Positions 9,692 through 51,043 of a stretch of 58,028 nucleotides of DNA are shown here, in pieces. The notes under the pieces are model-generated. The model saw only the letters and a list, made by a program, of their open reading frames with translations. It was not told the origin of the DNA and did no database searches. Each line of letters starts with the position of its first letter. Within the stretch, counting starts at the first letter, position 1. Where the stretch lies: the NCBI GenBank assembly GCA_046485285.1, contig JAWOHE010000061.1, positions 1-58,028 on the forward strand, given 5' to 3'. Origin of the DNA: a bacterium. Its GTDB lineage: Bacteria > Hydrothermota > Tepidihabitantia > Tepidihabitantales > Tepidihabitantaceae. Both the position numbers and the translations under genes were made by a program.

Positions 9692-10468
9692 ATGCCGGTG
9701 CACCCGACCGCGGTCGTCGAGCCGGGTGTAGAGCTCGGCCCGCGCTGCACGGTCGGGCCGTTCTGTCACCTGAGCGGCCGGGTTCGGCTCGGCCGCGACT
9801 GCCGGCTGGCGGCCGGGGTGGCGATCGGTGCCGAGCCGATGGACTGGAAGTACTCCGGGGAGGAGACCGCGGTCGTCATCGGCGACGAGAACGCCTTCCA
9901 CGAGTACGCCACCGTTCACCGCGCGACCGGTGCGGGTGCGGAGACGGTCATCGGCAGTCGCAACCGGGTGATGGCGTACGTCCACATCGCCCACAACTGC
10001 CGGGTAGGCGACGGCTGTGTCATCACCAACGCCTGCCAGCTCGGCGGCCACGTCGAGCTGGGCGACGGCGCCAACCTCGGCGGGATGGTCGGCGTGCACC
10101 AGTGTTGCCGCATCGGCGAGCTGGCGATGGTCGGCGCACACAGCTACGTGAACCGCGACATCCCGCCCTTCATGCTCGCCGCCGGCCGGCCGTGCCGGGT
10201 CCGGGGGCTGAACCGCGTCGGCCTCGAGCGGGCGGGAGTCCCGGCGCCGGCGCGGGCGATGCTGAAGCGGGCCTGGAAGCTGATGTATGGCTCCGTGCTC
10301 GGGCTCTCGACGGCGGTCGCGGCAATCGAGCGCGACCTGCTGCCCGAGTCAGTCGAGGAAGGCGGCGGGGACGAACTCCGCCGGCTGCTTGAGTTCATCG
10401 GGACCACCGGACGCGGCATCGAACTCCGCGCCGGTGGTGCGACCGAGGAGGAACAATGCGAGTCCTGA
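9692..10468 (+). CDS. lpxA: Acyl-ACP--UDP-N-acetylglucosamine O-acyltransferase
   Basis: Hexapeptide repeats, VHPTAVVEPG start, and C-terminal helical domain (GLNRVGLERAG). Position after fabZ. Confidence 0.9.
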   Translation: MPVHPTAVVEPGVELGPRCTVGPFCHLSGRVRLGRDCRLAAGVAIGAEPMDWKYSGEETAVVIGDENAFHEYATVHRATGAGAETVIGSRNRVMAYVHIAHNCRVGDGCVITNACQLGGHVELGDGANLGGMVGVHQCCRIGELAMVGAHSYVNRDIPPFMLAAGRPCRVRGLNRVGLERAGVPAPARAMLKRAWKLMYGSVLGLSTAVAAIERDLLPESVEEGGGDELRRLLEFIGTTGRGIELRAGGATEEEQCES

Positions 10469-11829
10469 CCGTTCTCGTCCTCGCGCTGGCACTGGCGCCG
10501 GCGCATCCCTGGGCCTGCTACCACGGCGACCCCCAGCACAGCGGCCGCTCGACGCTGGGCGTCGGCGACTCGCTCGGGGTCGCGTGGGACTTCCGCGCCG
10601 GCGGCGACATCTCCGGGTCGCCGGTAGTCAACAGCTCGGGGCAGGTTCTTTTTGCGGCCCGCGACGCGCGGCTGTACTGCCTGAATCACGACGGCAGCCA
10701 GGCTTGGGCGACGGACCTGGCCGAGCACGGCACGGCGGTCTATTTTTCGACGCCGGCGCTGGACGATGCGGGCAACGCCTACATCACGACCAACCGGCGT
10801 CTGGTCAAGGTCAGCCCGACCGGTTCGGTGCTGTGGCACTACCCGGACCACCGGTTGTGGTCGGTCAGCCACTCGCCGGTCATCGGCGCCGACGGCAAGA
10901 CCTACTTCGCGAGCTACGCCGACTCGCTCTGCGCGCTGCGGCCCGACGGCACGCTGGACTGGGCCCGTGACCTCGGGCTCGACGTCAACTCGGCCCCGGC
11001 GGTCGGGCTGGACGGGCGTATCTACGTCGCGACGACCCGGGGAACCGGCGGCTGGAAGCTCTGGGCGTTCGAGCCGGACGGGTCCGAGGCCTGGTCTTTC
11101 GACCTCGCCGCCGGTGCCGACTTCGCCTCGCCGGCGGTCGGCCCGGACTCGACCGTCTATGTCGGTGCCGGCCGATACCTCTACGCGGTGAGCGCCGCCG
11201 GCTCGCTCAAGTGGCGTGACAGCCTGCCGGCGAGCGTATCTTCCTGCCCGGCGGTCGCCAACGACTCCACGCTCTACGTGACGGCCGGGGCGTACCTGTA
11301 CCGAGTTTCGTCGGACTCCGGAGTGCGCTGGCGCAAGTACCTGGGCGGGTCGAACTACTCGGCGCCGGCGGTGGACGCCAACGGCTTCGTCTTCGTCGGC
11401 TCGGCCTACACGACGGCGCCCGCACTTCTCGTAATCGCGCCCGACTCGACGGTGCTCTGGTCGCAGCCAATGCCCGACGAGGTCTGGGCTTCGCCGGCGA
11501 TCGGGCCGGGCGGCCGGGTCTACGCCGGGTGCATGGACGGGGCCTTCTTCGCCCTCCAGGGTTCGGGCCTGGCGCTGGGGGAGAGCGGTCCGGGCGCCGC
11601 ACGCCCGGTCCTGCGGGCCTGGCCCAGCCCGACCAGCGGTCGGCTACGGCTGTCAGGCCCGGCCGGTATCGACCAGGTGCCGGTCGGCGTGTTCGATGCA
11701 GCCGGCCGGTCGGTCGGTTTCCGGCGTGCCGGCGAACTAATCGACCTCGCAGGCCTGCCCGCGGGCGTCTACGTGGTCAGCGTCCGGGCCGGCGGCGGGG
11801 TGCTGCGCTGCCGGGTCGTGCTGGAGTAG
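10456..11829 (+). CDS. Secreted PQQ/BamB-like beta-propeller protein with T9SS C-terminal sorting domain
   Basis: Signal peptide MRVLTVLVLALALAPA. Repeated ...G.VLW../..DG..W motifs. C-terminus LRAWPSPTSGRLRL...VFDAAGRSV...LPAGVYVVSVRAGG..RVVLE resembles T9SS type A CTDs. Confidence 0.7.
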   Translation: MRVLTVLVLALALAPAHPWACYHGDPQHSGRSTLGVGDSLGVAWDFRAGGDISGSPVVNSSGQVLFAARDARLYCLNHDGSQAWATDLAEHGTAVYFSTPALDDAGNAYITTNRRLVKVSPTGSVLWHYPDHRLWSVSHSPVIGADGKTYFASYADSLCALRPDGTLDWARDLGLDVNSAPAVGLDGRIYVATTRGTGGWKLWAFEPDGSEAWSFDLAAGADFASPAVGPDSTVYVGAGRYLYAVSAAGSLKWRDSLPASVSSCPAVANDSTLYVTAGAYLYRVSSDSGVRWRKYLGGSNYSAPAVDANGFVFVGSAYTTAPALLVIAPDSTVLWSQPMPDEVWASPAIGPGGRVYAGCMDGAFFALQGSGLALGESGPGAARPVLRAWPSPTSGRLRLSGPAGIDQVPVGVFDAAGRSVGFRRAGELIDLAGLPAGVYVVSVRAGGGVLRCRVVLE

Positions 11830-14694: not shown

Positions 14695-14723
14695 TTGACA
14701 GGCAGGAAAGACCGGAGTATGCT
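14695..14723 (+). promoter_or_regulatory. Sigma70-like promoter TTGACA-N17-TATGCT
   Basis: Perfect -35 at 14695-14700 and -10 at 14718-14723. About 120-nt GC-hairpin-rich leader before ATG 14848. Confidence 0.5.
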
Positions 14724-14847
14724 CGACTTGTCCGTGGGGGTGGCGGTGGCACCGCCGCGAGAGTGCGGACTATGGCAGTCGGCACGATGGGTGCCCATCG
14801 GCGCCGGAGGACCGGATTCGTGTCCGCGGTGCAAAGGAGGCAACACC

Positions 14848-17796
14848 ATGCACCGACATGAACCGCCAGGCGCCTACCCCTCTGTCTTGGCCGGCCTCCG
14901 CAGTCCTGCGACCGGGTCGGCATGGACTCTGACAGGCAAGGCACTGACCATCGCAATCGCGCTGCTGGTGACACTCGTATTCGCGGGCGAGTGGGAACCC
15001 ACAACACGACAGCCGGCAGGTGGTCGAGCCTTGGATGTGACTGCCGGGTGTCTGCCCGGAGGCTCGGCTGTGCTCTACACTTGCGTCGAGAACAGCGAAG
15101 GGGATTTCCCGAGGTCATACATCTACAAGAGCTCGGACAACGGGAACCGCTGGAGTGAGGTTTTCCGCGCCCACCTGCTGGCGGCTGTGCGCACCCGCGA
15201 GACTGACCCGCAGGTCGTTTATGCGGGGCTTGATGGTGCGGCACAGGGCGGGTCAGTTGGGTTGTACAAGTCAACCAACGGAGGCGCAAGCTGGACTCCA
15301 CTGACGAACGGAATAGACCGGCCGGTAATCGGCACGATTGCCATCTCAGCTCAGAATCCCGACCTGCTCCTTGCAGGTGCTGGACGCCGGACGAGTGTGG
15401 GAAAGCTGTACAGAAGCACCGATGGCGGGGCGTCTTGGGCGAACGTTCTGCCCCTGCTGACGCCGGATGTCGCGAGGGTCGAAGACATCGCCATTAGTCC
15501 GCAAGACGACGGTCGCGTCCTGTTCTGCGCATCTGACGGTCCGGCCGGCCACTATGGCATCTTCCTGAGTACTGATGGCGGGCAGGAGTGGACTCAAACG
15601 TGGTCAGCAGGATTCGTCTACTCGTTGGCATTCGCCCCGGACGGCCAGGTGGTGTATGCCGGCGCAGATGTCAACAAGGTGCTCAAGAGCACCGATGGCG
15701 GCCAGAACTGGCAGGTGGCCGCCACTCTGCCGGGGCAGCCCTGGCATTCGATACACTCGGTCGTCGTTCATCCCCTCGACCCTACCCGGGTATATCTCTC
15801 ACGGCACCGTTCCGGCGTCTGGTACTCATCGGACGGCGGCCACAACTGGGTGCCCCGGAACAACGGGTTGTGGCTGACTGACATGTGGTTGACGCGACTT
15901 CTTGTGAATCAGCAAGACCCGGAATGTCTGTTCGCTGGCGAGTATGATGCGGGGCTCTACCGGACCGCCGACGGCGGGCTGAACTGGAAGCAGGCGTCCG
16001 ACTGGCATCCAGTGCTCAGGCTCCGAAACGTAGTCGCACAGGAACAGACAGGCCACATAGCAGTCCAGGCCCACACAGGCCCCGTCTGTGTCTCCAGCAA
16101 CAAGGGCGATGACTGGGAGATGACGACGCGCAGTTTCTTCATGGCAGCGCGCGGCGCCCTCGTGCAAGCCAGGCCGGGTGTGCTTCTGGTGTCTCATCCG
16201 TGTCTCCCCTCGACTGACGGCGAAATCGAACGCGAAACAGCCGATGATGATGCACTGCATGAGTCGTTCATCGCTCGAAGCACCGACCACGGGTATACCT
16301 GGACCGTCAGGTACCACGGCGCGGATGTTCTGGTCTACGACCTGGCCACAGCCCCCGGCGACCGGACGCGGGCCTACGCGGTGGCCGCACTCGAACTCCC
16401 GGGCGGTTACTCCTTCGTGTTACGCAGCACTGACGAGGGTGTGAGCTGGGATGTGGCGGCGAGCGGCCTGAGCTGGCGACTGCGGTGCGTCACGGTCAGT
16501 CACAGCGACCCCGACCTCCTCTTCCTCGGGTGCAGTGACGGGAGCTTCCTGGTCAGCGGGGATGGCGGGTACAACGTAGTACTCGTCGGGGAGCTTCCTG
16601 ATGCCGTCTCCTGCCTCGTTGTAGACCCCGGGAATGACAGTGTAATCTACGCGGGGACTCCTGTCGGCGTCTACAAGTCCGACGACCGCGGAGTCAACTG
16701 GCAGGCTGCGAACTCCGGGATTGAACACTTGAGCGTCAGGGCCTTGGCAGTTGACCCCTTGGACCCGCGCCGGCTCTGGGTATCGACGTGGGGCGTGAAC
16801 GGCGCGAACAGCGTCTATCATGTGTGCCAGTCCTTTGACGGAGCTCAGTCCTGGCTTGCGGCAAGAGATGGCATACCTGCGGCAACCTCAGTGGAAGGTT
16901 TCCACATCAGCCAGGATGACCGCCGCATCTATGCGGCCACCTCGGCCGGTGTCTACCTGAGAGACCTGGGGCTTATTGCCGCGGGTTCCCCTGAGGCGAC
17001 CCATCCCAACTGGGGCCGGAACCTCGTGCGCATTCCGAACACGCAGCAGTACTACGCCGTGTACCAGGACAACGGCAGCATCTACTACGTCAGTACCCCG
17101 GACCGAGGTGCGACTTGGACTGAGCCTGAGCTGGTTGGCCACGGTCTTGACCCGGCGCTCGTGGTCAACAGGAGTCTCGTCGGGGCGGGGCAGACACCGT
17201 GGGTGGTTTACGTGACCGGGGATGGTGCTATCGAGCGGGCGATTAGACAGGGTCCGGGCCTCTGGTCGCACGCGCTCGTCTTCAGTCAGCCCGGCATGTC
17301 TGCCGGCGCGCCGTCGCTGGCCGCGGGCATAACACCGGATGTCGTCGGCCCGCTCGCGCACGTCGCCTACCCGGTCTACATCGGCGAGCCGCCGGCGCAG
17401 TGCTACGTCTACTGCAACACCTTCACCGAGTACGCGGTGTCCGCCCCGTATGAGCTCGACAACGCGCCGGAGAACGCCTTGCGCAGCCCCAGCGTTGCGG
17501 TGACCCCCGGCGACATCATCCACGTCGCATGGGACCGTAGCGAACAGATAGTGTACCGGGAGCATCGGGACGGCCTGTGGTCGGAAATCTACCCGATTTC
17601 GAGGCCGGTCTGGCCGCCATCCGAGCCTGCTTCGAACCCCGCGCTTGAGGCGTACGGGGATTACATCTACTGCGTCTGGCGCGGGCCGAACGGACAGGGT
17701 CAGTTCCCGGGCGACATCTGGCAAAGCAAGCGGTGGCTCTGGAACGAGCCTTGGGATTGGTTCGACCCGGAGAACCAGAGCCTGACTCCGGGCTAG
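14848..17796 (+). CDS. BNR/Asp-box repeat beta-propeller protein (N-terminal part of a split T9SS cargo)
   Basis: AAAGGAGG RBS and a signal anchor (ALTIAIALLVTLVFAG). About 14 SxDxGxxW Asp-boxes (SSDNGNRW, STDGGASW, STDGGQNW, and others). No sorting domain. Ends at TAG 17794-17796. Confidence 0.8.
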   Translation: MHRHEPPGAYPSVLAGLRSPATGSAWTLTGKALTIAIALLVTLVFAGEWEPTTRQPAGGRALDVTAGCLPGGSAVLYTCVENSEGDFPRSYIYKSSDNGNRWSEVFRAHLLAAVRTRETDPQVVYAGLDGAAQGGSVGLYKSTNGGASWTPLTNGIDRPVIGTIAISAQNPDLLLAGAGRRTSVGKLYRSTDGGASWANVLPLLTPDVARVEDIAISPQDDGRVLFCASDGPAGHYGIFLSTDGGQEWTQTWSAGFVYSLAFAPDGQVVYAGADVNKVLKSTDGGQNWQVAATLPGQPWHSIHSVVVHPLDPTRVYLSRHRSGVWYSSDGGHNWVPRNNGLWLTDMWLTRLLVNQQDPECLFAGEYDAGLYRTADGGLNWKQASDWHPVLRLRNVVAQEQTGHIAVQAHTGPVCVSSNKGDDWEMTTRSFFMAARGALVQARPGVLLVSHPCLPSTDGEIERETADDDALHESFIARSTDHGYTWTVRYHGADVLVYDLATAPGDRTRAYAVAALELPGGYSFVLRSTDEGVSWDVAASGLSWRLRCVTVSHSDPDLLFLGCSDGSFLVSGDGGYNVVLVGELPDAVSCLVVDPGNDSVIYAGTPVGVYKSDDRGVNWQAANSGIEHLSVRALAVDPLDPRRLWVSTWGVNGANSVYHVCQSFDGAQSWLAARDGIPAATSVEGFHISQDDRRIYAATSAGVYLRDLGLIAAGSPEATHPNWGRNLVRIPNTQQYYAVYQDNGSIYYVSTPDRGATWTEPELVGHGLDPALVVNRSLVGAGQTPWVVYVTGDGAIERAIRQGPGLWSHALVFSQPGMSAGAPSLAAGITPDVVGPLAHVAYPVYIGEPPAQCYVYCNTFTEYAVSAPYELDNAPENALRSPSVAVTPGDIIHVAWDRSEQIVYREHRDGLWSEIYPISRPVWPPSEPASNPALEAYGDYIYCVWRGPNGQGQFPGDIWQSKRWLWNEPWDWFDPENQSLTPG

Positions 17797-17811
17797 GAAT
17801 CCAACTACCCG

Positions 17812-18642
17812 GTGATGACCACTGATTTCGTCACGGTCTGGCACGAAGACGTGGGCGGCGGGAACACCGATATCTGGGCGAAGTTTGCGCCGGACCCATC
17901 CGCCCGGTCCTTGTTCCAGACCCCGCGGCCCTCCCGGTACCCGCACGCCGAGGGGTATTGGGAACACCTGATTGCGGAGTTCCACTGCAACACGCTCTGG
18001 ACCGAGGAACTCTCGCCTTTCCTGCCGCTCTACGAAGTGCGGTTTGACGTCAGGAGCTGGGTGCCCAGCTTCGACGGCCGGTTCGAGCCTGCTTCGTACT
18101 ACGAAGTACAGACCGGGAACCCGGTACCATCGCCCTACTGCCGGAGCCGGGGCGGTGCCCGGGTCCATCGTTCCTACCGGGTGGACTCCGCGGCCAGCGA
18201 GCTGGTCTACGACCTGCTGTTTCTTGACCCGCGGCGAGCTTACGATGCCCGGGCTGTGGTGTACCACGAGGGCAAGGGCGACTGGACCTTCGAGCTCAGT
18301 GCCGACACCCTGTCCCTGGCTCGAATCAAGGCCAGGCCCGGGGTCCCGGAGACCGCGCTGGTCCGGATTCCGGGCTGGGCATATCAGCCCAGGACACGGG
18401 CCGTGCTGAGCCTGCGCCGGCTCGCGGCTGACTATGCGCCGCTTGCCGGGCTCAAGCTCTTCCAGGTCGAGGAACGCACACCCGGGGTGGACGGGCCGCA
18501 GACCGCTGGAGGAGTGCCGCGCGCGACCCTGCGACTCGAACCGTGTGCGCCCAACCCGTTACGCGACCGGACCGAAATCCGGTACGAGCTGCCGCGTGCA
18601 GGCCGGGTGTCGGTCCGGGTGTTCGACGCGGCCGGCCGCTAG
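17812..18642 (+). CDS. ORF continuing the BNR protein in the same frame; ends at an in-frame TAG inside a T9SS sorting domain
   Basis: No signal peptide and no SD. Same frame as 14848-17796. C-terminus LRLEPCAPNPLRDRTEIRYELPRAGRVSVRVFDAAGR* is only the first half of a FlgD-Ig/T9SS-type CTD. Confidence 0.5.
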   Translation: MMTTDFVTVWHEDVGGGNTDIWAKFAPDPSARSLFQTPRPSRYPHAEGYWEHLIAEFHCNTLWTEELSPFLPLYEVRFDVRSWVPSFDGRFEPASYYEVQTGNPVPSPYCRSRGGARVHRSYRVDSAASELVYDLLFLDPRRAYDARAVVYHEGKGDWTFELSADTLSLARIKARPGVPETALVRIPGWAYQPRTRAVLSLRRLAADYAPLAGLKLFQVEERTPGVDGPQTAGGVPRATLRLEPCAPNPLRDRTEIRYELPRAGRVSVRVFDAAGR

Positions 18643-18757
18643 GTCCGGCTACTCCTTGACGAGGAGCAAGGCCCGGGCCTTGTGCGGGTCGCCTGGGATG
18701 GCCGGGACGCCCGGGGCCAATCCCTGCCTGCGGGCGTGTACTTCTACCGGGTCACGC

Positions 18758-20566
18758 ATGACGGCCACGAGCAGACCGGCCGGGCAGTCCTTGCCCGCTA
18801 GCCGGATACCCTGGGGCGGGCCGGCCCGGCCTGCCCCAGGGTCTTTCGTACGGCTCTTGCTGGCCGTGTCCTGCTTGGCCGGGTGCGCATACGGCCAGTT
18901 CCGGATGAAACGGATTGCCCTGCTTCCAGCCGGACCCATCGCGCCGTCCACCTCCCGGTTCGTCTGCGCTGACAGTGACCAGGATGGACGCCAGGAGGTC
19001 ATCTTCCGGACCGGGAGCATCAGGCCTGAGGACCCGCTGCGCGTGGAAATCTGGGAGTACCGGCCGGTGAACCGGTTCGAGCTGGTCTTCGCTGACACCG
19101 GGGCCTATCCGTACCCGCCCGGAATCACAACCGGGAACCTGCGGATTTCTGACTGCGGGGACCTTGATGCCGACAGCCTATTTGACCTGACCGGGCTGAA
19201 TAAGGACAAACAGGGCGACTCGCTGTACGACATCACCCCGATGCATGAAAGCCCGACCCGGCATCAGTACCCCGAATCCCTGGTCTGGTATGCCAGAACC
19301 CCGACAGGGTGGCCGCGTGCTCGACATACCGGGGATCTTGATGCCGACGGCCGGGAGGAATTGATGGTCCCGTCGGACATAGGCCTGCTGGTCTACGAGA
19401 ACGTCGGAGGCAACCAGAATGAACTCGTCTGGAGGTTGCCTCCAGGCAGCGTAGATGGTTTCGAGCTCGCCATCGAAGACTCCGACGGCGATGGGTATCG
19501 GGAGTTCTTAACAGCCGGGATAGGCAATGGGGTAGTCTCGCTCTTCAAATGCGTCGGCGACAACCAGTACGAGCTGGCCTGGCAGGACACGGTCGGCCTG
19601 CCGAACGGGCATGACGTATTCTCCGGCCGGAACTTTGATGTGGAGGGCAAGCCCCGGTTCTTCGTCCGGTTCAAGGTCACGCCCTGGAACCGCTGGTATC
19701 TGTATATGTGGGAATCAGTGGGCAACAACCGGTTCCTGCGCGTCCAGGTCGACGAGAAGACGTTGAGTGCCCAGGGCGTTTCCTCCCGAAGCGTCTGCGG
19801 CGACCTTGACGGAGACGGGTTTTCCGAGGTGGTCTGGGCCGTGCCGATTGGGCTGTTCATCTACAAGCCGACCGGCCACAATCAGTTCGAGCAGGTCTGG
19901 ACCTGGTGGGATGACCACGGCACCCACCTGTCGGTTGACACCAGAATCCGGGATATGAACAACAACGGGTACAACAACCTCGTCGTGGCCGGGAGTTTCA
20001 AGACTTCGGTGTTCGAGGTCGAGGCGGTGCGGGTCCTGTCCCCGAACGGCGGCGAGGAGCTGGTGGCCGGAGACACCTGCCGGATTCGCTGGCGGACCTT
20101 CAACCCGCCCCGATGTGACTCGGTCTCGCTGTTCCTGCTCACCGACACGGGAGTGCCCGAGGGCGAATGGTTCTGGCGGATGGACACGATTGCGACCGGG
20201 CTCGCGCCGACCGAGAGCAGTCACGCCTGGGTCGTGCCCGACACGGTACTGTCCGCGGCCTGGATTGTCGCGATGGCACATGGTCCGGGCTGGCAGCACG
20301 ACAACTCGGATGGCCCGTTGCGCATCGTGCCGCCCGGGGTCGAGGAGGCGGAGGCGCTTGCCTGGGAGCACTGGCAGCCGCAGACCGTGCTGCGCGGCAA
20401 TCTGCCGGTGCCCGAAGGCATCCACGCTCTGCTCTTCGATGCTGCCGGCCGGAAGGTGATGGAGCTGCAACCCGGCGAGAACGACGTCCGGCGGCTCGCG
20501 CCCGGGGTGTACTTCGTCCGCCGGCAGGACACCGGCGAGTCGGCAAGGCTGGTGCTGGCGAGGTAG
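18758..20566 (+). CDS. FG-GAP/VCBS-repeat lipoprotein with T9SS C-terminal sorting domain
   Basis: Lipobox LLLAVSCLAG|C needs a start upstream, so ATG 18758 is proposed (alternatives GTG 18866, ATG 18905). FG-GAP Ca-binding-like motifs DSDQDGRQE, GDLDADGREE, DSDGDGYRE, GDLDGDGFSE. CTD LLFDAAGRKV...APGVYFVRRQDTGESARLVLAR. Confidence 0.75.
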   Translation: MTATSRPAGQSLPASRIPWGGPARPAPGSFVRLLLAVSCLAGCAYGQFRMKRIALLPAGPIAPSTSRFVCADSDQDGRQEVIFRTGSIRPEDPLRVEIWEYRPVNRFELVFADTGAYPYPPGITTGNLRISDCGDLDADSLFDLTGLNKDKQGDSLYDITPMHESPTRHQYPESLVWYARTPTGWPRARHTGDLDADGREELMVPSDIGLLVYENVGGNQNELVWRLPPGSVDGFELAIEDSDGDGYREFLTAGIGNGVVSLFKCVGDNQYELAWQDTVGLPNGHDVFSGRNFDVEGKPRFFVRFKVTPWNRWYLYMWESVGNNRFLRVQVDEKTLSAQGVSSRSVCGDLDGDGFSEVVWAVPIGLFIYKPTGHNQFEQVWTWWDDHGTHLSVDTRIRDMNNNGYNNLVVAGSFKTSVFEVEAVRVLSPNGGEELVAGDTCRIRWRTFNPPRCDSVSLFLLTDTGVPEGEWFWRMDTIATGLAPTESSHAWVVPDTVLSAAWIVAMAHGPGWQHDNSDGPLRIVPPGVEEAEALAWEHWQPQTVLRGNLPVPEGIHALLFDAAGRKVMELQPGENDVRRLAPGVYFVRRQDTGESARLVLAR

Positions 20567-20574
20567 AACACCGG

Positions 20575-20846
20575 CAGACGGCTTGGAGTGCTCCGAGCCG
20601 CACCCGGACCCCCACCCCCACCTGCCTTCCCCTAGCGGCCCCGGGGACGCCTCCCCTAGCGGTCCCGGGGGCGGCCTCCGGGACGGCTCCGGTAGCGGCT
20701 CCCGGGACGGCCCCCGGAATCGTCCCGGGGATATCCCCAGGAGTGGTCCCCCTAGTGGCCCCGGAGACGGCTCCCGGGGCGGTCCCCGGGGCGGCCCCCG
20801 GAACCGTCCCGGGGATATCCCCGGGATACCCCCCCGGAGTGCTGCT
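20575..20846 (+). repeat. ~272-bp GC-rich repeat R1 (inverted partner 57504-57775), internally ~12-bp periodic
   Basis: Manual alignment to the reverse complement of 57504-57775 gives roughly 95% identity. Contains the 18-bp perfect palindrome CCCGGGGATATCCCCGGG (20808-20825). Confidence 0.85.
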
Positions 20847-21030: not shown

Positions 21031-21258
21031 CTCCCCCAACCGCTACCCCTACCATTACCCCAGCCGTATGCCCTACCGTTCCCCCTACCGTTCCCCCAAC
21101 GGTATGCCCTACGGTTACCCCTACCGTTACCCCAACCGTGGGGCTAACGGCTCCCCCAACGGTAGGGCTAACCGTTCCCCCAACCGTACCCCCTACCGTA
21201 CCCTCTACGGTACCCCCTACGGTAGGGGGTACCGTAGGGGGTATGGGGGAGGGGGTAA
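21031..21258 (+). repeat. 12-bp-period tandem array (~18 units, consensus about TWCCCCCWACSG)
   Basis: Splitting from 21031 into 12-mers gives ctcccccaaccg, ctacccctacca, ... taccccctacgg, tagggggtaccg. The core flips between ACCGT and ACGGT, and late units switch to the G-rich complement. Confidence 0.85.
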
Positions 21259-21812: not shown

Positions 21813-22929
21813 CTAGCCGGCGCGGCGGGGGCTGGTGGCCTTGAGCCAGGCGAGGACGAAGGGCTCGAGCTTGCCGGCGAGGACGCCTTCGACGTCGTGG
21901 GTTTCGAGGTCGGTGCGGTGGTCCTTGACGAGCTGGTAGGGGAAGAGGACGTAGGACCTTATCTGGTGGCCCCAGGCGATGTCGGTCTTCGACTCCTCGA
22001 ACTTGCGGCGCTCGGCGTCCTGTTCGCGCCGGGCGTGGTCGTAGAGCCGGGCGCGGAGGATCTTGAAGGCGTTCTGCTTGTTTTGGGCCTGTGAGCGCTC
22101 GTTCTGGCAGATGACGACGATGCCGGTCGGTTCGTGGGTGAGCCGGACCGCGGAGCTGATCTTGTTGACGTTCTGGCCGCCGTGGCCGCCGGCGCGGAAG
22201 GTGTCGACCCGGACGTCGTTGAGGTTGAGCTCGACCTCGACGTCCTCGACCTCGGGGAGAACCGAGACCGCGGCGAAGCTGGTGTGGCGGCGGCCGTTGG
22301 CGTCGAAGGGCGAGGTCCGGACGAGCCGGTGGACGCCGTGCTCGCTCTTGAGGAGGCCGTAGGCGTTGGTGCCGGTGACCTCGAGGGTGGCGTCTTTGAC
22401 GCCGGCGACGTCATCGGGCTGGAGGTCGAGGACGCGGTACTTGAGACCCTGGAGTTCGACGTAGCGGGTGTACATCCGGTAGAGCATTTCGGCCCAGTCG
22501 CAGGAGTCGACGCCGCCCGCGCCCGGGTGAATCTGGATGATGGCGGGGCGGACGTCCTCGGGCGAGTTGAAGAGGCCGCGCTCTTCGAGGGTGGTGAGGT
22601 CGCGGTCGATGCGGCCGACGTGGCCGGCGAGCTCGACGGCCGCGGCTTCGTCAGCGGCGAACATCTCGGCCATCTCGGCCGCGTCGCCGATTTCCCGCTC
22701 GAGGCGGTCGAAGCGGGTGAGGACGTCCTCGATGGCGGCCGAGCGGCGCATCACGTCCTGGGCCCGGGCCGGGTCGGACCAGAAGTCGGGCCGGGCGCTC
22801 TGTTCCCGGAGCCGGGTCAGTTCCTGGCGTCGGTTGGCAAGGTCAAAGAAACTCCCTTGCCGACCGGAGGCGCTCGGCGAGTCCGCGGACTTCCTGCGCC
22901 AGCGATGCGGCGCCCCGGTTTTCGGCCAC
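21813..22929 (-). CDS. prfB: Peptide chain release factor 2, with programmed +1 ribosomal frameshift
   Basis: Frame 0: GTG 22929 to ...SAREFL then TGA (22843-22845). The +1 frame continues [25 protein letters not shown]... with SPF and GGQ motifs. Total length 1117 nt = 3n+1. Confidence 0.93.
22842..22857 (-). promoter_or_regulatory. RF2 autoregulatory frameshift site: AGGGAG-TTT-CTT-TGA-C
   Basis: Minus-strand sequence AGGGAGTTTCTTTGAC, an SD-like element 3 nt before the CTT TGA C slippery stop, as in E. coli prfB. Confidence 0.9.
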
Positions 22930-40229: not shown

Positions 40230-40856
40230 ATGAGCGGCATTTCCGTGCTCGGCCGTAAGGGTGATATGACGCAGGTATACGACGAGCATGGCCGGGCCTT
40301 TCCGGCCACGGCGGTTGACGTCAGTGACTGCGTGGTCGTCACGCTTCGCGGTGTCGGCCGGCACGGCTATGAAGCCCTGCAACTGGGCCTGGGCAGGGCC
40401 AACCCCCGTCGGGTCAGCAGGCCGCTGGCCGGGCACTGCAGGAAGGCCGGAATCGAGCCGGTCGCGTTCCTGCGTGAGGTGAGGGTCAGTTCCTCAGCCG
40501 AGTACAGGCCCGGGCAGAAGCTCGGGCCGGAGGTCTTTGCGGCCGGCGACAAGGTCGACGTGACAGGTGTGACAAAGGGGCGAGGCTTCGCAGGCGGTGT
40601 CAAGCGCTGGGGCTGGCACGGAGGGTCGGCCACTCACGGCTCGATGACACACCGGCGGGTTGGTTCGGCCGGTGCTGGTACGACCCCTGGCCGCGTGCTG
40701 CCCGGCCGGACGATGGCCGGGCACTATGGCGTGGAACGCGTGACCATCCGCAAACTCCAGATTGTCAAGGTCGAGCAGGACAAGGGACTCGTCTACATAA
40801 GCGGTGCGATACCCGGTCACCGCGGGTCGATCGTGGTCGTACGGAAGCGGGCGTAG
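40230..40856 (+). CDS. rplC: 50S ribosomal protein L3
   Basis: [12 protein letters not shown]...[18 protein letters not shown]. Confidence 0.96.
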
Positions 40857-40862
40857 GGGACA

Positions 40863-41486
40863 GTGATGGACGTCACAGCTGCGGATGGAGCGACCAAGGG
40901 CACCGTCGAACTGCCCGAGAAGATCTTCAAGCATACCGGGACCGACAGCCTGCTCTGGGAGGCGGTCCGGGTTTACCTCGCCAACCAGCGACAGGGTACC
41001 GCCAAGACCAAGACCCGCGCCGAGGTATCCGGTACGGGCAAGAAGCCCTACCGTCAGAAACATACTGGCAATGCCCGCCACGGGTCGCGCCGCTCTCCGA
41101 TCTTCCGGACCGGCGGGATTGTCTTCGGTCCGCTGCCACGCGATTACAGCCTGAACATGCCGAAGCAGAAGCGGCGCTCGGCGCTGTACGCAGCACTCTC
41201 AGCCCGCCACGCCGAGGGTGCGGTCAGGGTTGTCGAGGACTTCGAGCTGTCCGAGGCCAAGACCAAACAGATGGTGCAGGCGATCTCGGGGTTCGGCTTC
41301 GAGGGCACCGTTCTGCTCATGCCGGCCGAGGTGCCGGAGGCGATGCGGCGGGCCGGCCGCAACATACCATGGCTGACGCTGATGCCGGCCCGGATGGTCA
41401 ACACCTACGCGGTGCTTGACCACGACATCGTCGCGTTCACCAGGGCCGGGCTCGCCAGTTTCGCCGAGGCGACGGGGGCCGCGTGA
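40863..41486 (+). CDS. rplD: 50S ribosomal protein L4
   Basis: RQGTAKTKTRAEVSGTGKKPYRQKHTGNARHGS. Confidence 0.95.
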   Translation: MMDVTAADGATKGTVELPEKIFKHTGTDSLLWEAVRVYLANQRQGTAKTKTRAEVSGTGKKPYRQKHTGNARHGSRRSPIFRTGGIVFGPLPRDYSLNMPKQKRRSALYAALSARHAEGAVRVVEDFELSEAKTKQMVQAISGFGFEGTVLLMPAEVPEAMRRAGRNIPWLTLMPARMVNTYAVLDHDIVAFTRAGLASFAEATGAA

Positions 41487-41773
41487 TGCAGGACTACTCG
41501 AGGGTAATCATCGGCGCGCTCGTGACCGAGAAGTCCGAGCGGATCAAGGCCGACCACAACCAGTATACCTTCCGCGTGGCGACCGGTGCAACCAAGGTCG
41601 AAGTCCGGCGCGCGGTCGAGAAGCTGTTCAAGGTTCACGTCACCGGCGTGCAGGTGATGAACTACCTCGGCAAGAGACGGCGAATGGGAATGTTCTCGGG
41701 ACGGCGGCCCGCGTGGCGAAAGGCGATCGTCACCGTGAAAGCCGGCGAGACGATCGAGGCGCTGGAGCGATAG
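41483..41773 (+). CDS. rplW: 50S ribosomal protein L23
   Basis: Position and TEKSERIKADHNQYTFRVATGATKVEVRRAVEKLF. Confidence 0.95.
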   Translation: MMQDYSRVIIGALVTEKSERIKADHNQYTFRVATGATKVEVRRAVEKLFKVHVTGVQVMNYLGKRRRMGMFSGRRPAWRKAIVTVKAGETIEALER

Positions 41774-41774
41774 G

Positions 41775-42605
41775 ATGGGCATCAAGCGGCACAATCCAAC
41801 GACGCCCTCGAGGCGCTACGTTCAGGTCTCGACATTCGAGGAACTCACCACTGCCGCCCGGCCGCGCAAGTCCCTGCTCACGCCGCTGCGCCGGAAGGGC
41901 GGCCGGAACAACCGTGGCCGGATCACCGCCAAGCGCCGGGGCGGCGGCGCGAAGCGACACTACCGGCTCGTTGACTTCCGCCGGGAAAAGCGCGAGGTGC
42001 CCGGTCGGGTGAGCTCGATCGAGTACGACCCGAACCGCTCGGCGCGCATCGCGCTGATTAGCTACGCCGACGGTGACTACCGTTACATCCTCTGCCCGGA
42101 GGGGCTCAAGGCCGGTGACCAGGTCCAGGCCGGCCGGAACCTGCCGGTCCGCAACGGCAACGCGATGCCGCTGTCCGACATCCCGACCGGTGTCGAGATA
42201 CACAACATTCAGTTCATGCCCCTGGGACGGTCGTTCCTCGTGCGGTCAGCGGGCACCAGCGCCCAGTTGATGGCCAAGGAAGAGAAGTGGGGCGTGGTCC
42301 GCCTGCCGTCCGGCGAGATCCGGAAGTTTGACCTCGGCTGCTACGCTACGGTCGGTAGCGTGTCGAACCCAGAGCACAAGGACATCGTCATCGGCAAGGC
42401 GGGCCGGGTTCGCCACAAGGGCCGGCGGCCGCGCGTTCGCGCGGTGGTAATGAACCCGGTTGACCATCCGATGGGCGGCGGCGAAGGCAAGAGCTCGGGC
42501 GGGCGGCATCCGTGCTCGGAATCGGGCTTCCCGGCCAAGGGTGCCCGGACCCGCAACCGCAAGAAGAAGTCCAGCCGCTATGTCGTCCAGCGAAGGAAGC
42601 GATAG
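41775..42605 (+). CDS. rplB: 50S ribosomal protein L2
   Basis: [16 protein letters not shown]...[21 protein letters not shown]. Confidence 0.97.
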
Positions 42606-42609
42606 GATC

Positions 42610-42897
42610 ATGGGACGTTCGATCAAGAAGGGCCCTTTCATTGACGAGAAGCTCTTCCGGCGCCTGCGGGCGCTGGCTGATTCGGGCGAGAAGCGTACGG
42701 TCAAGACCTATGCCCGGCGCAGTGTAATCCCGCCCGAGTACGTCGGATTCACGATTGCGGTCCACAGCGGCAATCGCTTCGTGCCGGTCTACGTGACCGA
42801 ACGGATGGTAGGCCACAAGCTTGGCGAGTTTGCCCCGACCCGGACATTCCGGGGGCACTCGGGCGTCAAGAAGAAGGAAGAGGAGCGCAAGAAGTGA
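42610..42897 (+). CDS. rpsS: 30S ribosomal protein S19
   Basis: [15 protein letters not shown]...[33 protein letters not shown]. Confidence 0.97.
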
Positions 42898-43253
42898 TGG
42901 AGGCCGTCGCGATCAGCCGGTACCAGCGCGGGTCGGCCCGCAAGCTGGGCATCATTGCCGACCTGGTGCGGGGCAAGGACGTCCCCGAGGCGCTGCGCGC
43001 GCTCACGTTCCTCGCCAAGCCCAGCAAGCGCCCCGTGCTGAAGACACTTCGCTCGGCAGTCGCCAACGCCGTGAGCAAGGCGGGAAAGGCCAAGCTGCAC
43101 GAGGACGACCTGTTCGTCGCCGAGATCCGCGTGGACCAGGGGCCGACGATGAAGCGTTGGCGTCCGGGTCCGCGCGGGATGGCGTCGGTCATCCGCAAGC
43201 GCACCTGTCACGTTCACGTCCGGGTCGCGACGAAGAAGGGAATCGAGGTCTAG
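42894..43253 (+). CDS. rplV: 50S ribosomal protein L22
   Basis: [25 protein letters not shown]. Confidence 0.95.
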
Positions 43254-43256
43254 CGC

Positions 43257-43898
43257 ATGGGACAGAAGACACACCCGGTTGGCTTCCGGCTCGGCATCAC
43301 CAGGGGCTGGCGGTCCTCGTGGTTCGAGAGCCGGAAGTACCGTGAGTACCTGCACGAGGACCTCCAGATCCGACGGTACATCGAGGCCAAGCTGCCGGAG
43401 GCAATGATCGCGGACATTGAGATCAAGCGGGTCACCAACCGGACGACGGTGGCAATCTTCACCGCCCGGCCCGGGATGGTCTTCGGCACCCGGCGTGCCA
43501 ATCTCGAGTCGCTGCGCGAGGAGATCAAGCGGCTCGTGAACCGCGAGGTCACCCTGCTGGTCGAGGTCGTGCGCGTGCCCGAGCTCGAGGCCCGGCTTGT
43601 GGCGAAGAACGTCGCCAAGCAGCTTGAGCAGCGGATCGCCCACCGCCGGGCAATGCGGCGGGCGGTCACCCAGGCGCTCAGGCTCGGCGCCCAGGGCATC
43701 AAGATAATGGTCGGCGGCCGGCTCGGCGGCCACGAGATTGCCCGAAGCGAGTGGCAACTGCAGGGACGGGTACCGTTGCACACGCTCAAGGCGAACATCG
43801 ACTACGCCTGCGAGACGGCGAACACGATTGCCGGTTCGGTCGGCGTCAAGGTCTGGATCTACAAGGGCGACGTGAGCGCCCAGACCGGGAGGGCTTGA
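43257..43898 (+). CDS. rpsC: 30S ribosomal protein S3
   Basis: [23 protein letters not shown] and KH domain. Confidence 0.97.
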
Positions 43899-43902
43899 TA
43901 CC

Positions 43903-44331
43903 GTGTTGATGCCCAAGCGGGTCAAGTTCCGCAAGCCCCACCGCGGGCGGATGAAGGGCAAAGCGACGAAGTCCAACCGCATCGACTTCGGCGAGTTCGG
44001 GCTGATGGCGCTCGAGCCGAGCTGGATCACCTCGCGCCAGATCGAGGCGGTTCGCCTGACCCTGACCAAGGTCCTGCGCCGCACCGGTAAGCTCTGGATA
44101 AGGATCTTCCCGCACAAGGCGGTCACCAAGAAGGCGGCCGAGTCCCGGATGGGTAAGGGCAAGGGCACGCCCGAGTTCTGGGTTGCGGTGGTCAAGCCCG
44201 GGACGGTGATGTTCGAGGTCAGCGGCATCGATCCCGACGGGGCCAAGCGGGTGCTGAAACAGGCCGGGTCGAAGATGCCCTGCAAGACCCGGGTCGTCGC
44301 CCGCGAGGAGATGAACTATGAAGGCTTCTGA
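43903..44331 (+). CDS. rplP: 50S ribosomal protein L16
   Basis: MLMPKRVKFRKPHRGRMKG. Confidence 0.97.
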   Translation: MLMPKRVKFRKPHRGRMKGKATKSNRIDFGEFGLMALEPSWITSRQIEAVRLTLTKVLRRTGKLWIRIFPHKAVTKKAAESRMGKGKGTPEFWVAVVKPGTVMFEVSGIDPDGAKRVLKQAGSKMPCKTRVVAREEMNYEGF

Positions 44332-44542
44332 GTTGCGCGAGTTGAGCCCGGAAGAGCTGCAGCGGCGGGTCGCCGAGTTGCGCGACGAGCTGTTCAAGCT
44401 CCGGCTCCGCCGCGCGACCGAACAGCTCACCAACCCGCTTCGGCTCCGGTCGCTGCGGCGTGACATTGCCCGCTGCATGGGCGCGCTCAACAGCAAGCGG
44501 GAGGCCCCGGCACCGGTGGAGAAGGGTGATGACCAGAACTGA
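44318..44542 (+). CDS. rpmC: 50S ribosomal protein L29
   Basis: [31 protein letters not shown]. Confidence 0.93.
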
Positions 44543-44771
44543 GCGCAGGACCGTCGTCGGCACCGTCAAGTCGGCGAAGATGCAGAAGACGGTGGTGGTC
44601 GTCGTCGAGCGGGTCGAACTCCACGAGAAGTACAAGAAGTACATCAAGCGCCGGACCCGGCTCTACGCCCACGACGAGCGGGCCGAGTGCCGCGAGGGCG
44701 ACCGGGTGCTGCTGGTCGAGACCCGTCCGCTGTCCCGGCTCAAGCGCTGGCGGGTGGTGAAGAAGGTATGA
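44529..44771 (+). CDS. rpsQ: 30S ribosomal protein S17
   Basis: [39 protein letters not shown] 44529 lies within the longer ORF. Confidence 0.95.
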
Positions 44772-45136
44772 TCCAGGAATACAGCCGGCTCGTCGTCGCC
44801 GACAACTCGGGCGCCCGCCAGGCGATGGTGATCAAGGTCTACGGCGGCTCGCGCCGTCGCTTCGGCTACCTGGGCGACACCGTGCTGGTGGCGGTGAAGG
44901 ACGCGATGCCCAACGCGGCGATCAAGGCCGGCTCGAAGTCCAAGGCGGTCGTGGTGCGCACCCGCAAGGAGGTCCGGAGGGTGGACGGGACGTACGTCCG
45001 GTTCGACGACAATGCCTGCGTCCTGATCGACGACAAGGGCGAGCCCAAGGGCACGCGCGTCTTCGGGCCGGTGGCCCGGGAACTGCGCGACCGGAAGTTC
45101 ACCAAGATCGTCTCGCTGGCGACCGAGGTGGTGTGA
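44768..45136 (+). CDS. rplN: 50S ribosomal protein L14
   Basis: [28 protein letters not shown] overlap with rpsQ. Confidence 0.97.
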
Positions 45137-45137
45137 G

Positions 45138-45461
45138 ATGAACCTTCGCAAGGGTGACCTGGTCGAGATTGTCAGCGGGGAAGACCGCGGCCGGCGCGGG
45201 AAGCTCCTGGAAATCCGGCGCGACAAGAAGAGCGGACGGTACCGGGCGGTCGTCGAGGGTCTGAACCTCGCCAAGAAGCACCGGCGGACGTCCGGGCCGG
45301 GCAAGCCGGGCGGCATAATCGACCTGCCGATGCCGATCGACATCTCGAACATGGTCCTGTTGTGCCCGAAGTGCGGCAAGAAGTCCCAGGTCCGACGCGA
45401 GGAACACGGCGACCGCCGGGTCCGCGTCTGCCGGGAGTGCCGGGAGATAATCGACGCATGA
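45138..45461 (+). CDS. rplX: 50S ribosomal protein L24
   Basis: MNLRKGDLVEIVSGEDRGRRGKL (KOW motif). Confidence 0.95.
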   Translation: MNLRKGDLVEIVSGEDRGRRGKLLEIRRDKKSGRYRAVVEGLNLAKKHRRTSGPGKPGGIIDLPMPIDISNMVLLCPKCGKKSQVRREEHGDRRVRVCRECREIIDA

Positions 45462-46003
45462 GCGCCCGCCTGAAGACAGCCTACCGCGAGAAGATTGTCC
45501 CGGCGCTGATGAAGGAGTTCGGCTACCGGAACGTCCACCAGGTGCCGCGGCTGCTCAAGATCGTCGTCAACGTTACGACCAAGGATGCGGTCGCCGACGC
45601 CAAGGTCCTGAACGTCATCGCCGACGACCTGGCCGCCATCACCGGGCAGCGCCCGGTCCGGACTGTTGCCAAGCGCGCGATCTCGGCCTTCAAGATCCGC
45701 CAGGGCATGCCGCTCGGGGTAATGGTGACGCTCCGCGGAGAACGGATGTTCGAGTTCCTGGACCGGTTCTTCAACTTCGCGGCCCCGCAGATACGCGACT
45801 TCCAGGGCTTCTCGGCCGACTCGTTCGACGGGCGCGGCGGCTACAGCCTTGGCCTCTCCGAGCAACTGGTGTTCCCGGAGATCGAGGCCGCGAAGGTCCA
45901 GAAGGTGTTCGGGATGAACATCACCCTGCAGACAACCGCCCGCCACGATGACGAGGCGCGGGCGCTGCTGGCGGCACTCGGGCTGCCTTTCCGGAGGAAG
46001 TAG
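45458..46003 (+). CDS. rplE: 50S ribosomal protein L5
   Basis: LKTAYREKIVPALMKEFGYRNVHQVPRL...RGMPLGVMVTLRG. Confidence 0.96.
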   Translation: MSARLKTAYREKIVPALMKEFGYRNVHQVPRLLKIVVNVTTKDAVADAKVLNVIADDLAAITGQRPVRTVAKRAISAFKIRQGMPLGVMVTLRGERMFEFLDRFFNFAAPQIRDFQGFSADSFDGRGGYSLGLSEQLVFPEIEAAKVQKVFGMNITLQTTARHDDEARALLAALGLPFRRK

Positions 46004-46006
46004 CGG

Positions 46007-46192
46007 ATGGCGAAGAGATGTCTGGTGGTCAAGAATCGGCGCGAGCCCAAGTTCAGGATCCGCAAGTACTCGCGCTGCCAGCGCTGCGGCCGGCCGCGGG
46101 CGGTCTACCGCAAGTTCGGCCTCTGTCGGCTGTGCTTCCGCGAGCTGGCGCTCAAGGGCGAGTTGCCGGGCGTGCGCAAGGCGACCTGGTAG
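46007..46192 (+). CDS. rpsZ: 30S ribosomal protein S14, zinc-binding type Z
   Basis: 61 aa with CQRCGRP...[22 protein letters not shown] (CxxC...CxxC). Confidence 0.95.
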
Positions 46193-46202
46193 GAGGACAG
46201 AC

Positions 46203-46592
46203 TTGGACGCGATAGCCGATCTCCTGACGCGCGTGCGCAACGGCATCCACCGCCGGCACCGCGATGTCCGCATGCCATTCTCGCGGGTGAAGCACGAACT
46301 GGCCCGCATCCTCCTCGAGGAGGGCTACGTCAATAACTTCCAGGTCGAGGGCGAGGGCATCCACCGCAGCATCGTCGTAACGCTCAAGTACAACGAGGAC
46401 GGCAGCTCGGTTATCAAGGGTCTCCGGCGCATCTCGCGCCAGAGCCGCCGCGTCTATGTCGGCGCGGACGGGCTGCCGAAAGTCCTCGGCGGGCTGGGGG
46501 TCGCCGTCGTGACGACTTCGCGCGGGATGCTTACCGACCGCGACGCCCGGCGCGAGGGCGTTGGCGGCGAGGTCATCTGCGAGGTCTGGTAG
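46203..46592 (+). CDS. rpsH: 30S ribosomal protein S8 (TTG start)
   Basis: AGGAGG, 6 nt, then TTG. DAIADLLTRVRNGIHRRH...GGEVICEVW. Confidence 0.93.
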   Translation: MDAIADLLTRVRNGIHRRHRDVRMPFSRVKHELARILLEEGYVNNFQVEGEGIHRSIVVTLKYNEDGSSVIKGLRRISRQSRRVYVGADGLPKVLGGLGVAVVTTSRGMLTDRDARREGVGGEVICEVW

Positions 46593-46600
46593 GCGGCGGG

Positions 46601-47170
46601 ATGGCGAAGAACTACCGTCCGCTGGCGATACCGGCCGGGGTCAAGGTCACGGCCAGGCCCGAAGCGGTTGAGGTGAAGGGCAAGCTGGGGACGCTGGTCG
46701 TGCCGATACCGCAGCGCATCGAGGTCAAGGTCGAGGGCGTCGAGCTGTCGGTCGAGGCCCGGGCGGGCGTGACGCGGGCGATGATCGGCACGACCCGGGC
46801 GCACCTGCGCAATGCCCTCGAGGGCGTCACCAAGGGATTCGAGAAGGCCCTCCAGGTCCGGGGGATGGGCTACCGGGTACAGAAGACCAAGGACGGGATC
46901 CAGCTCGCCTGCGGTTTCTCCCACCCGGTCAACTTCGCGGTCCCGGCCGGCCTGACCTTCGAGGTCGCCCAGGTGCCGAACCCGGACGACACCAAGCAGC
47001 AGATGTTCGAGATCGTCCTGCGCGGAGTTGACCGCCACCTCGTCGGCCACGCCGCGGCGCGCCTCCGCGCGGTCAAGCCGCCCGACCCGTACAAGGGCAA
47101 GGGCATCCGCTACCGCGACGAGGTCGTCCGCAAGAAGGCGGGCAAGCGGGCGGTCGGCGCCCAGGCCTGA
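46601..47170 (+). CDS. rplF: 50S ribosomal protein L6
   Basis: Two-domain L6 pattern (...GYRVQKTKDGIQLACGFSHPV...PDPYKGKGIRY). Confidence 0.95.
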   Translation: MAKNYRPLAIPAGVKVTARPEAVEVKGKLGTLVVPIPQRIEVKVEGVELSVEARAGVTRAMIGTTRAHLRNALEGVTKGFEKALQVRGMGYRVQKTKDGIQLACGFSHPVNFAVPAGLTFEVAQVPNPDDTKQQMFEIVLRGVDRHLVGHAAARLRAVKPPDPYKGKGIRYRDEVVRKKAGKRAVGAQA

Positions 47171-49397: not shown

Positions 49398-49421
49398 GCG
49401 ACCTCCGGGTGCCGAGACGCG

Positions 49422-50906: not shown

Positions 50907-51043
50907 CACAGACCTCCTTCGTGTGCACTTCGTGATACGGGCCTATGCCAGCCCGGTGCGCAGTCACGCCCGGTCGCCAGACGCGGCCGGGCGAAGGCGT
51001 CGAACCTTCGGCAGACCGATCTCACACTCCGTGCTATTAGCTG

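Follow-up and report, generated by a model that had tools for sequence, protein, structure and literature searches.

A putative type IX secretion cargo gene divided by two in-frame TAG codons in a WOR-3-like bacterium

Gene layout and the two internal TAG codons

The window considered here is the whole of a 58,028-nucleotide stretch, contig JAWOHE010000061.1 of assembly GCA_046485285.1, from a bacterium placed in the lineage Hydrothermota. On its plus strand, positions 14848-18801 form one coding frame with exactly two internal stops, as read from the sequence. Both stops are TAG codons and divide the frame into three segments, which together appear to make up a single cargo gene of the type IX secretion system (T9SS) rather than three genes. 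From its 5′ to its 3′ end, this gene would encode a signal anchor, propellers of the BNR/Sortilin type, a module of about 600 residues composed of a beta-propeller and a beta-sandwich, and a type A sorting domain. The features of the locus are as follows.

14833-14840, plus strand: Shine-Dalgarno-like ribosome-binding site AAAGGAGG, 7 nt 5′ of ATG 14848, read from the sequence
14848-17793, plus strand: segment 1, 982 codons, with the putative signal anchor, the BNR/Sortilin-type propeller region and the first 276 residues of the conserved 611-residue C-terminal module
14929-14985, plus strand: hydrophobic segment LTGKALTIAIALLVTLVFA, residues 28-46, a candidate signal anchor or uncleaved signal peptide
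17023-18060, plus strand: predicted beta-propeller of the conserved module (module residues ~20-365), including stop 1, from AlphaFold2 and Foldseek
17794-17796, plus strand: premature TAG 1, codon 983, module residue 277, context GGC TAG GAA
17797-18639, plus strand: segment 2, 281 codons, with the remaining propeller, the beta-sandwich and the first half of the sorting domain, and no signal peptide of its own
18550-18780, plus strand: predicted T9SS type A C-terminal sorting domain (FlgD_ig / Por_Secre_tail), split by stop 2
18640-18642, plus strand: premature TAG 2, codon 1265, context CGC TAG GTC, in the G-R-x-V turn of the sorting domain
18643-18798, plus strand: segment 3, 52 codons, the C-terminal half of the sorting domain
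18799-18801, plus strand: natural terminal TAG, at the same place as the ends of the homologues (...R and stop) in the alignment
18808-18842, plus strand: G+C-rich hairpin of 16 bp followed by UCUUUCGU, a likely transcription terminator of the full-length gene

The first internal TAG is followed by five sense codons (GAA TCC AAC TAC CCG) and then by GTG 17812, while 52 sense codons lie between the second TAG and the terminal one. Both internal stops share the context GC-TAG-G. The coordinates, the two in-frame stops, their common context and the 52 trailing codons had been described in an earlier note made from the letters alone, and all are present in the sequence. That note had also proposed a signal anchor, and residues 28-46, the highest Kyte-Doolittle 19-residue window of the protein (mean 2.1), fit this proposal. 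They are preceded by a 27-residue N-terminal stretch with several basic residues, a pattern which does not distinguish a cleaved signal from an anchor. Its estimate of about 14 Asp-boxes was roughly right, as 12 match the pattern [ST]x[DN]x[GR]xx[WF] and one or two degenerate copies can be added by eye. The database gene call for the ORF (open reading frame) at 14848 is 908 aa long, which implies a start at GTG 15070 and would cut off the hydrophobic N-terminal segment. ATG 14848, with the ribosome-binding site AAAGGAGG, looks like the better start.

The 65-nt RNA fold at 18796-18860, which contains the hairpin, has an energy of −44.2 kcal/mol (z = −4.3), and none of 200 shuffles was as good. 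A strong hairpin of this kind lies only 3′ of the third TAG and at neither internal stop. A promoter/terminator scan recorded a single promoter-like site (14695-14723). Its rule on T-runs is strict, and it called no terminator, not even the hairpin at 18808-18842, whose T-run is poor. Codon usage continues past the stops. The G+C content at third codon positions (GC3) is 0.81-0.82 after them (0.82 in segment 2), and no frameshifts occur. Segment 1 has a GC3 of 0.74, below the 0.78 filter passed by all other high-confidence ORFs; this is compatible with relaxed selection or foreign origin and is not decisive.

Homologues and domains across the two stops

The protein search was made with the last 611 residues as the query, the stops being written as X. 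It returned 13 homologues besides the window's own product, one of them named as a candidate division WOR-3 protein, and 6 of the 13 span 98-100% of the query as single proteins at 31-46% identity. A genomic scan, restricted to one genome per species, gave 22 loci (L001-L022), mostly in metagenome-assembled genomes (MAGs) of WOR-3; the remaining loci come from several MAGs labelled 'uncultured bacterium' and from one Latescibacterota MAG. The two sets overlap. Overall, about 30 homologues, 31-47% identical and mostly from candidate division WOR-3, cover both stop positions, which sit in well-aligned blocks of the alignment. Of the 21 assessable loci, 20 keep a single frame free of internal stops throughout the match; the exception, locus L014 on a 2.3-kb contig, gave no single reading frame. 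The ORFs of these loci finish directly after the same C-terminal ...R as the gene described here, and among those with G+C of at least 0.59 and the ORF end within the locus, 8 of 10 end in TAG. Family members occur in multiple copies, and one MAG has as many as four paralogues.

Because single homologous proteins span both junctions, the three segments are best read as one gene and as more than chance ORF neighbours. The possibility that they are separate, independently translated genes is effectively excluded. A GTG codon does lie 15 nt past the first TAG and could in principle start a second gene. However, no good ribosome-binding site precedes GTG 17812, as the earlier note had pointed out; segment 2 lacks a signal peptide and would begin in mid-propeller, segment 3 is half a domain, and the homologues are single proteins. 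Orthologues present as separate genes would have spoken against the single-gene view put forward in that note, and what was found instead are single proteins across both junctions, together with a sorting domain which is recognised only when stop 2 is bridged.

The residue found in homologues differs between the two stop positions. The stop-1 column is variable (Q, R, L, V, D, C, N, K, S), and Gln is found there in 4 of about 30 homologues, some of them with a local TPxQES motif. At the stop-2 column Leu is the most common residue, Ala, Val, Met and Glu also occur, and neither Gln nor Trp is ever found; the matching position in the window's three other sorting domains is K, S or V.

Profile searches find propeller families in segment 1. 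Sortilin-Vps10 (PF15902) matches at 3.8e-26 (92.3 bits, cut-off 33) and BNR (PF02012) at 8.7e-12 (43.6 bits, cut-off 27), while the NCBIfam profile F510_1955-like matches at 9.5e-45, below its cut-off. With its Asp-boxes and these above-cut-off matches, the product would belong to the BNR/Asp-box (Sortilin-Vps10-like) beta-propeller proteins. Segment 2 scanned alone has no Pfam match. For the last 52 aa, Pfam gives CHU_C and no more of FlgD_ig than its C-terminal half (profile positions 44-76 of 79), and the part of the sorting domain before stop 2 alone matches no profile. With an X bridging stop 2, the 137 C-terminal residues match TIGR04183 (29.4 bits, cut-off 23) and PF13860, FlgD_ig (41.1 bits, cut-off 27), and PF18962 reaches 23.7 bits, below its cut-off of 27. 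The bridged match finishes 6 residues before the terminal stop. On these profile matches, a T9SS type A sorting domain would be present with stop 2 bridged, and it is split as literally encoded.

The AlphaFold2 model of the 611-residue module is all-beta, with a mean predicted local distance difference test score (pLDDT) of 75 and a predicted template-modelling score (pTM) of 0.71. In Foldseek searches, module residues ~20-365 resemble seven-bladed PLL/PHL lectins (TM relative to target ~0.6), sialidases and GH43 enzymes. Since this region resembles seven-bladed propellers, stop 1, at module residue 277, is predicted to lie inside a beta-propeller. It also stands one residue before ES[DN][YF]PVM[TS]T, the most conserved motif of the homologue family, which the locus finder had chosen as its search pattern.

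The conserved module of about 600 residues is an observation in its own right. It appears to be largely confined to WOR-3 (loci L001-L022; proteins P0002-P0013), its central part has no Pfam family, and it is fused to varied N-terminal passengers, namely peptidase C25 (P0004), BNR_2 (P0010) and Sortilin/BNR (the gene described here and P0011). This WOR-3 module of propeller, sandwich and sorting domain may deserve a family definition.

Decoding, origin and age of the TAG codons

TAG is an ordinary stop in this window. It terminates 15 of the 38 genes confirmed by a Pfam family, TGA terminating 21 and TAA 2, and the genes which end in TAG include rpsA, prfB, rpmE, murC/D/E, ftsA, ftsZ and those of L2 and L3. 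The earlier note had already considered a wholesale reassignment unlikely, with rpsA among its examples, and the larger count agrees with it. For a sequence of 69% G+C, TAG is an unusually frequent terminal stop, and the homologues in WOR-3 MAGs of 0.59-0.63 G+C likewise mostly end in TAG. Apart from the gene described here, reading through TAG joins segments of high GC3 at only two places, 1563 (a cNMP-binding gene and cmk) and 5536 (rpsA and a radical-SAM gene), both of which are junctions of ordinary operon neighbours. Three equivalent boundaries between neighbouring genes are found when TGA is read through. No other gene of the window is interrupted in mid-domain by any stop. Reassignment of TAG was rejected, since TAG ends so many confirmed genes and read-through lengthens a protein within a domain for this gene only.

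The only tRNA of the window is Glu-CTC. A tRNA with a CUA anticodon, which the earlier note had suggested looking for, is absent from the window, and an Rfam scan of the whole window likewise recovered tRNA-Glu only. An unusual release factor 1 (RF1) was also considered and rejected, the release factor gene of the window being an ordinary prfB, which encodes release factor 2 (RF2) with the SPF motif. This prfB, at 21813-22929 on the minus strand, matches TIGR00020 at 422 bits and carries the canonical programmed +1 frameshift site CTT TGA C. Its leader ORF of 28 codons (22929 to 22843) ends in ...AGG GAG TTT CTT TGA C, and the main frame runs to the TAG at 21813-21815. The presence of the canonical frameshift site shows that UGA is a stop in this organism and that RF2 is autoregulated in the usual way.

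Against this background, three accounts of the two TAG codons have to be weighed. The stops may be real and bypassed, so that some full-length protein is made through UAG read-through or suppression (by leaky termination, a suppressor tRNA or decoding of the pyrrolysine type). It is true that both stops are TAG in the same context, that the coding frame downstream shows no decay, and that only the read-through product would carry the signal anchor together with the sorting domain. However, TAG terminates essential genes, Glu-CTC is the sole tRNA of the window, no other window gene has an in-frame TAG, and none of the 20 single-frame homologous loci has an in-frame stop; because of this last count, the stop-containing state is not a trait of the family or lineage. 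Basal read-through of UAG in bacteria is around 1% or less, and in E. coli termination at UAG is not weakened by a following G. Two stops in series multiply two small probabilities and, on general knowledge, would give a negligible full-length yield unless a dedicated suppressor is present. Within the window there is neither a decoding agent nor a recurrent in-frame TAG, as programmed read-through or recoding would entail. Read-through is thus very unlikely, and the regulated form raised in the earlier note is unsupported. The narrower case, in which a suppressor encoded by a phage or in another part of the genome decodes the TAGs, inefficiently or under regulation, has only a slim chance of being right. 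If true, regulated TAG decoding would make the cargo export-competent only under certain conditions, a stop-codon-gated secretion switch in an uncultivated WOR-3-like bacterium; a search of the literature on WOR-3 found nothing linking this group to type IX secretion or to stop codons. Alternatively, the gene may be intact in the organism and the T bases be artefacts of sequencing, assembly or consensus calling, such as the allele of a minor strain in a metagenomic consensus or motif-specific miscalls at methylated CCAGG in long-read data. The frame, the conserved residues and the codon bias are fully kept after both stops, the window is apparently a whole metagenome-type contig (58028 bases is the longest contig in the cluster record of its own protein), and the shared sequence context is what a motif-specific miscall would give. 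Against this, all other conserved genes in the 58 kb are intact, which indicates a low general error rate; with full-length Pfam matches for every housekeeping gene, the assembly as a whole is not error-prone. That two random errors should both produce a stop in the same gene is very improbable, and 223 CCWGG sites remain against 16 CTAGG/CCTAG (13.3 expected). Motif-specific miscalling of CCWGG to CTWGG was rejected for want of any excess of CTAGG/CCTAG. An artefact is considered rather unlikely, though clearly less so than read-through.

The third account supposes real mutations, and a particular route has been suggested for them. According to this sub-hypothesis, 5-methylcytosine was deaminated at two CCAGG sites of the Dcm type, so that CAG became TAG at both stops. 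The classical precedent for amber hotspots of the CCAGG-to-CTAGG kind is lacI in E. coli (Coulondre et al. 1978, reviewed in PMC12606429). Both sites read CTAGG, while only 5 of the 35 remaining CAG codons of the gene stand in the context C_CAG_G. Two nonsense events in the context C_TAG_G would have a chance probability of about 0.02-0.04 if the context had been pre-specified, and of 0.002-0.005 with the extra G; however, the pattern was noticed post hoc, so it is only weakly significant. CCWGG is mildly depleted in the window (observed/expected ratio, O/E, 0.84; z = −2.6; rank 130 of 866 pentamers), and the four homologues with Gln at the site-1 column, including ones with the TPxQES motif, are consistent with a Gln ancestor there. 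The same column also holds R, L, V, D, C, N, K and S. At site 2 Gln is never found, neither among the about 30 homologues nor in the three paralogous sorting domains of the window. TTG (Leu; in L021), GAG (Glu; in L015), AAG (Lys) and TCG (Ser) can each become TAG by a single step, so nothing supports CAG as the ancestor at site 2. The comparison with homologues, called for in the earlier note, is therefore compatible with its proposal at the first site and does not support it at the second. Its compositional check is equivocal, as the expected products are not significantly enriched in the window (CTAGG/CCTAG O/E 1.19, CTTGG/CCAAG O/E 1.07), and the window's annotated genes include neither a cytosine-5 methyltransferase nor vsr. 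The tetramer CTAG is itself depleted (O/E 0.49), as in many bacteria. At 47% identity, even the nearest homologue is too distant to reveal the ancestral codon. The C-to-T route at methylated CCAGG is possible for site 1 and unproven for site 2, and a common Dcm origin of both stops, suggested by their context and not established, is a minority prospect, about as doubtful as an artefact or slightly less so. Should reads bear out the two T bases and CCWGG prove to be methylated, the locus would be a neat natural example of a Dcm amber hotspot; even so, it would illustrate known biology and not a new kind of system.

The conservation of the gene bears on the age of its lesions. With family-conserved columns defined as those conserved in at least 80% of homologues, the query keeps 31 of 36 ahead of stop 1, 59 of 65 in segment 2 and 12 of 13 in segment 3, and the identity of the query to its homologues is equal in all three segments. 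Since the segments beyond the stops are conserved and free of frameshifts, any inactivation must be very recent. On sequence grounds, the lesions would thus be either recent or not real. This 'no visible decay' is weak evidence, because the nearest homologues are only 40-47% identical and a neutral change of 1-2% after inactivation would be undetectable at that distance.

The most likely interpretation, held to be probable and well short of certain, is that the locus is a real copy, recently disrupted by nonsense mutations, of a T9SS cargo family with multiple paralogues, in a WOR-3-like bacterium. Two point substitutions, probably real in the organism, would have created the TAG codons seen in this assembly. 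Translation as written would stop at codon 983 and release a truncated propeller with no sorting domain, which could not be exported by the T9SS. Because of this missing domain the gene is probably non-functional and would represent a null allele, in the form of a pseudogene of recent origin or of a null variant that segregates in the population. Since relatives have several paralogues per genome and this is one copy of such a family, its loss may be tolerable. The comparison with about 30 homologues, which carry sense residues at both positions, likewise identifies a putative pseudogene with premature stops inside a predicted propeller and a profile-recognised sorting domain. Several observations weigh against this interpretation. 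Family-conserved columns are kept slightly better after the stops (91-92%) than before them (86%), and it is mildly unusual that the same type of stop arose twice in the same hexamer context. Moreover, neither reads nor another copy were found to confirm the T bases: exact-protein look-ups with the window's own product and with the neighbouring rarA gave no second assembly, a segment-2 scan of metagenome contigs gave no close relative, and the genome collection held no copy above 47% identity. On balance, an ordinary nonsense-disrupted paralogue is most likely, which is known biology and requires no new way of decoding. For annotation, this means that the three ORFs should be merged into one disrupted (pseudo)gene of a T9SS cargo family and not be given as a protein of 908-982 aa with orphan ORFs. 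More generally, an in-frame stop in a MAG should be compared with genome-wide stop usage before recoding is proposed.

Surroundings of the gene and comparison with known systems

In gene content the window is an ordinary piece of chromosome, with cmk, plsC, ispH, rpsA, ompH, lpxD/C/A, fabZ and rarA, as well as prfB, rpmE, rho, the dcw cluster from mraZ to ftsZ and a ribosomal protein operon. Two further genes resemble T9SS cargo and a third possibly does; all are uninterrupted. The gene at 10456-11829 (plus strand) encodes a PQQ/BamB-like propeller with a T9SS-type C-terminal domain (TIGR04183, 32.6 bits). The one at 18851-20566 (plus strand) encodes an FG-GAP protein with a lipobox-like LAGC near its N-terminus, and its C-terminus (…DAAGRKVMEL…LVLAR and stop) is very like that of the broken gene. 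The possible third, at 47253-49397 (minus strand), encodes a Kelch-repeat protein whose C-terminus is similar by eye and has no NCBIfam match. T9SS machinery genes (PorK/L/M/N, Sov, PorU/V) were not found in the 58-kb window, and the further cargo-like genes are indirect support for a T9SS in this genome.

Between 20566 and 21813 lies a 1.25-kb region with no convincing gene and no Rfam match, which holds two degenerate tandem arrays of 12-nt period and several of the window's rare CCTAG sites. The array at 20636-20826 is CGGCCCCCGGGA-like, with a higher-order unit of 84 nt, and that at 21032-21224 is CCCCCTACCGTA-like. The rpmE gene (L31; 22936-23274, minus strand) has a Lys/Pro/Ala-rich C-terminal extension of about 50 residues before its TAG stop. 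The ribosomal protein operon at 40230-47170 (plus strand) runs L3, L4, L23, L2 … L16, L29, S17, L14, L24, L5, S14, … L6 and ends after L6; convergent Kelch-repeat and unknown genes (47253-50909, minus strand) stand in place of L18-S5-L30-L15-secY, which reflects either an operon split or an assembly junction. GATC is strongly depleted in the window (O/E 0.65, z = −8.5) and CATG is low (O/E 0.48), which may indicate past or present restriction-modification pressure.

Four known systems offer comparisons. Recoding systems, such as pyrrolysine decoding of UAG, phages recoded from TAG to Gln, and suppressor tRNAs, share with the present gene an in-frame TAG in a conserved coding frame. Unlike in these systems, TAG is here an abundant genuine stop, one gene is affected and the window has no tRNA-CUA; unlike the recoded phages, the sequence is a fragment of a bacterial chromosome with rpsA, the dcw cluster and ribosomal protein genes. 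The lacI amber hotspots at Dcm sites in E. coli likewise place TAG in a CTAGG pentamer, the expected product of CCAGG deamination. In the present gene, by contrast, methylation and an ancestral CAG are hypothetical, and the homologues at site 2 argue for an ancestor other than Gln.

The T9SS type A cargo of FCB-group bacteria (TIGR04183 / Por_Secre_tail, FlgD_ig-like) has an N-terminal Sec signal or anchor, large beta-propeller passengers and a C-terminal beta-sandwich of about 75 residues. The present gene would resemble it in its propellers and in its C-terminal domain, which matches TIGR04183 and PF13860 when bridged, and its hydrophobic N-terminal segment is a candidate for the signal or anchor. 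It differs in that the TAGs split the sorting domain and part it from the anchor, so that no product, as literally encoded, has both. The uncharacterised WOR-3 module family (for example P0006, MAG hypothetical protein JSU73_01180; L001-L022) is 31-47% identical to the present gene's product over 611 aa. The invariant motifs TEPASNP..EA.GD, WRGP and ES[DN][YF]PVM[TS]T are shared, and so is a C-terminus at the same ...R and stop. Unlike the gene described here, the WOR-3 homologues carry different N-terminal passengers and are uninterrupted in every single-frame locus.

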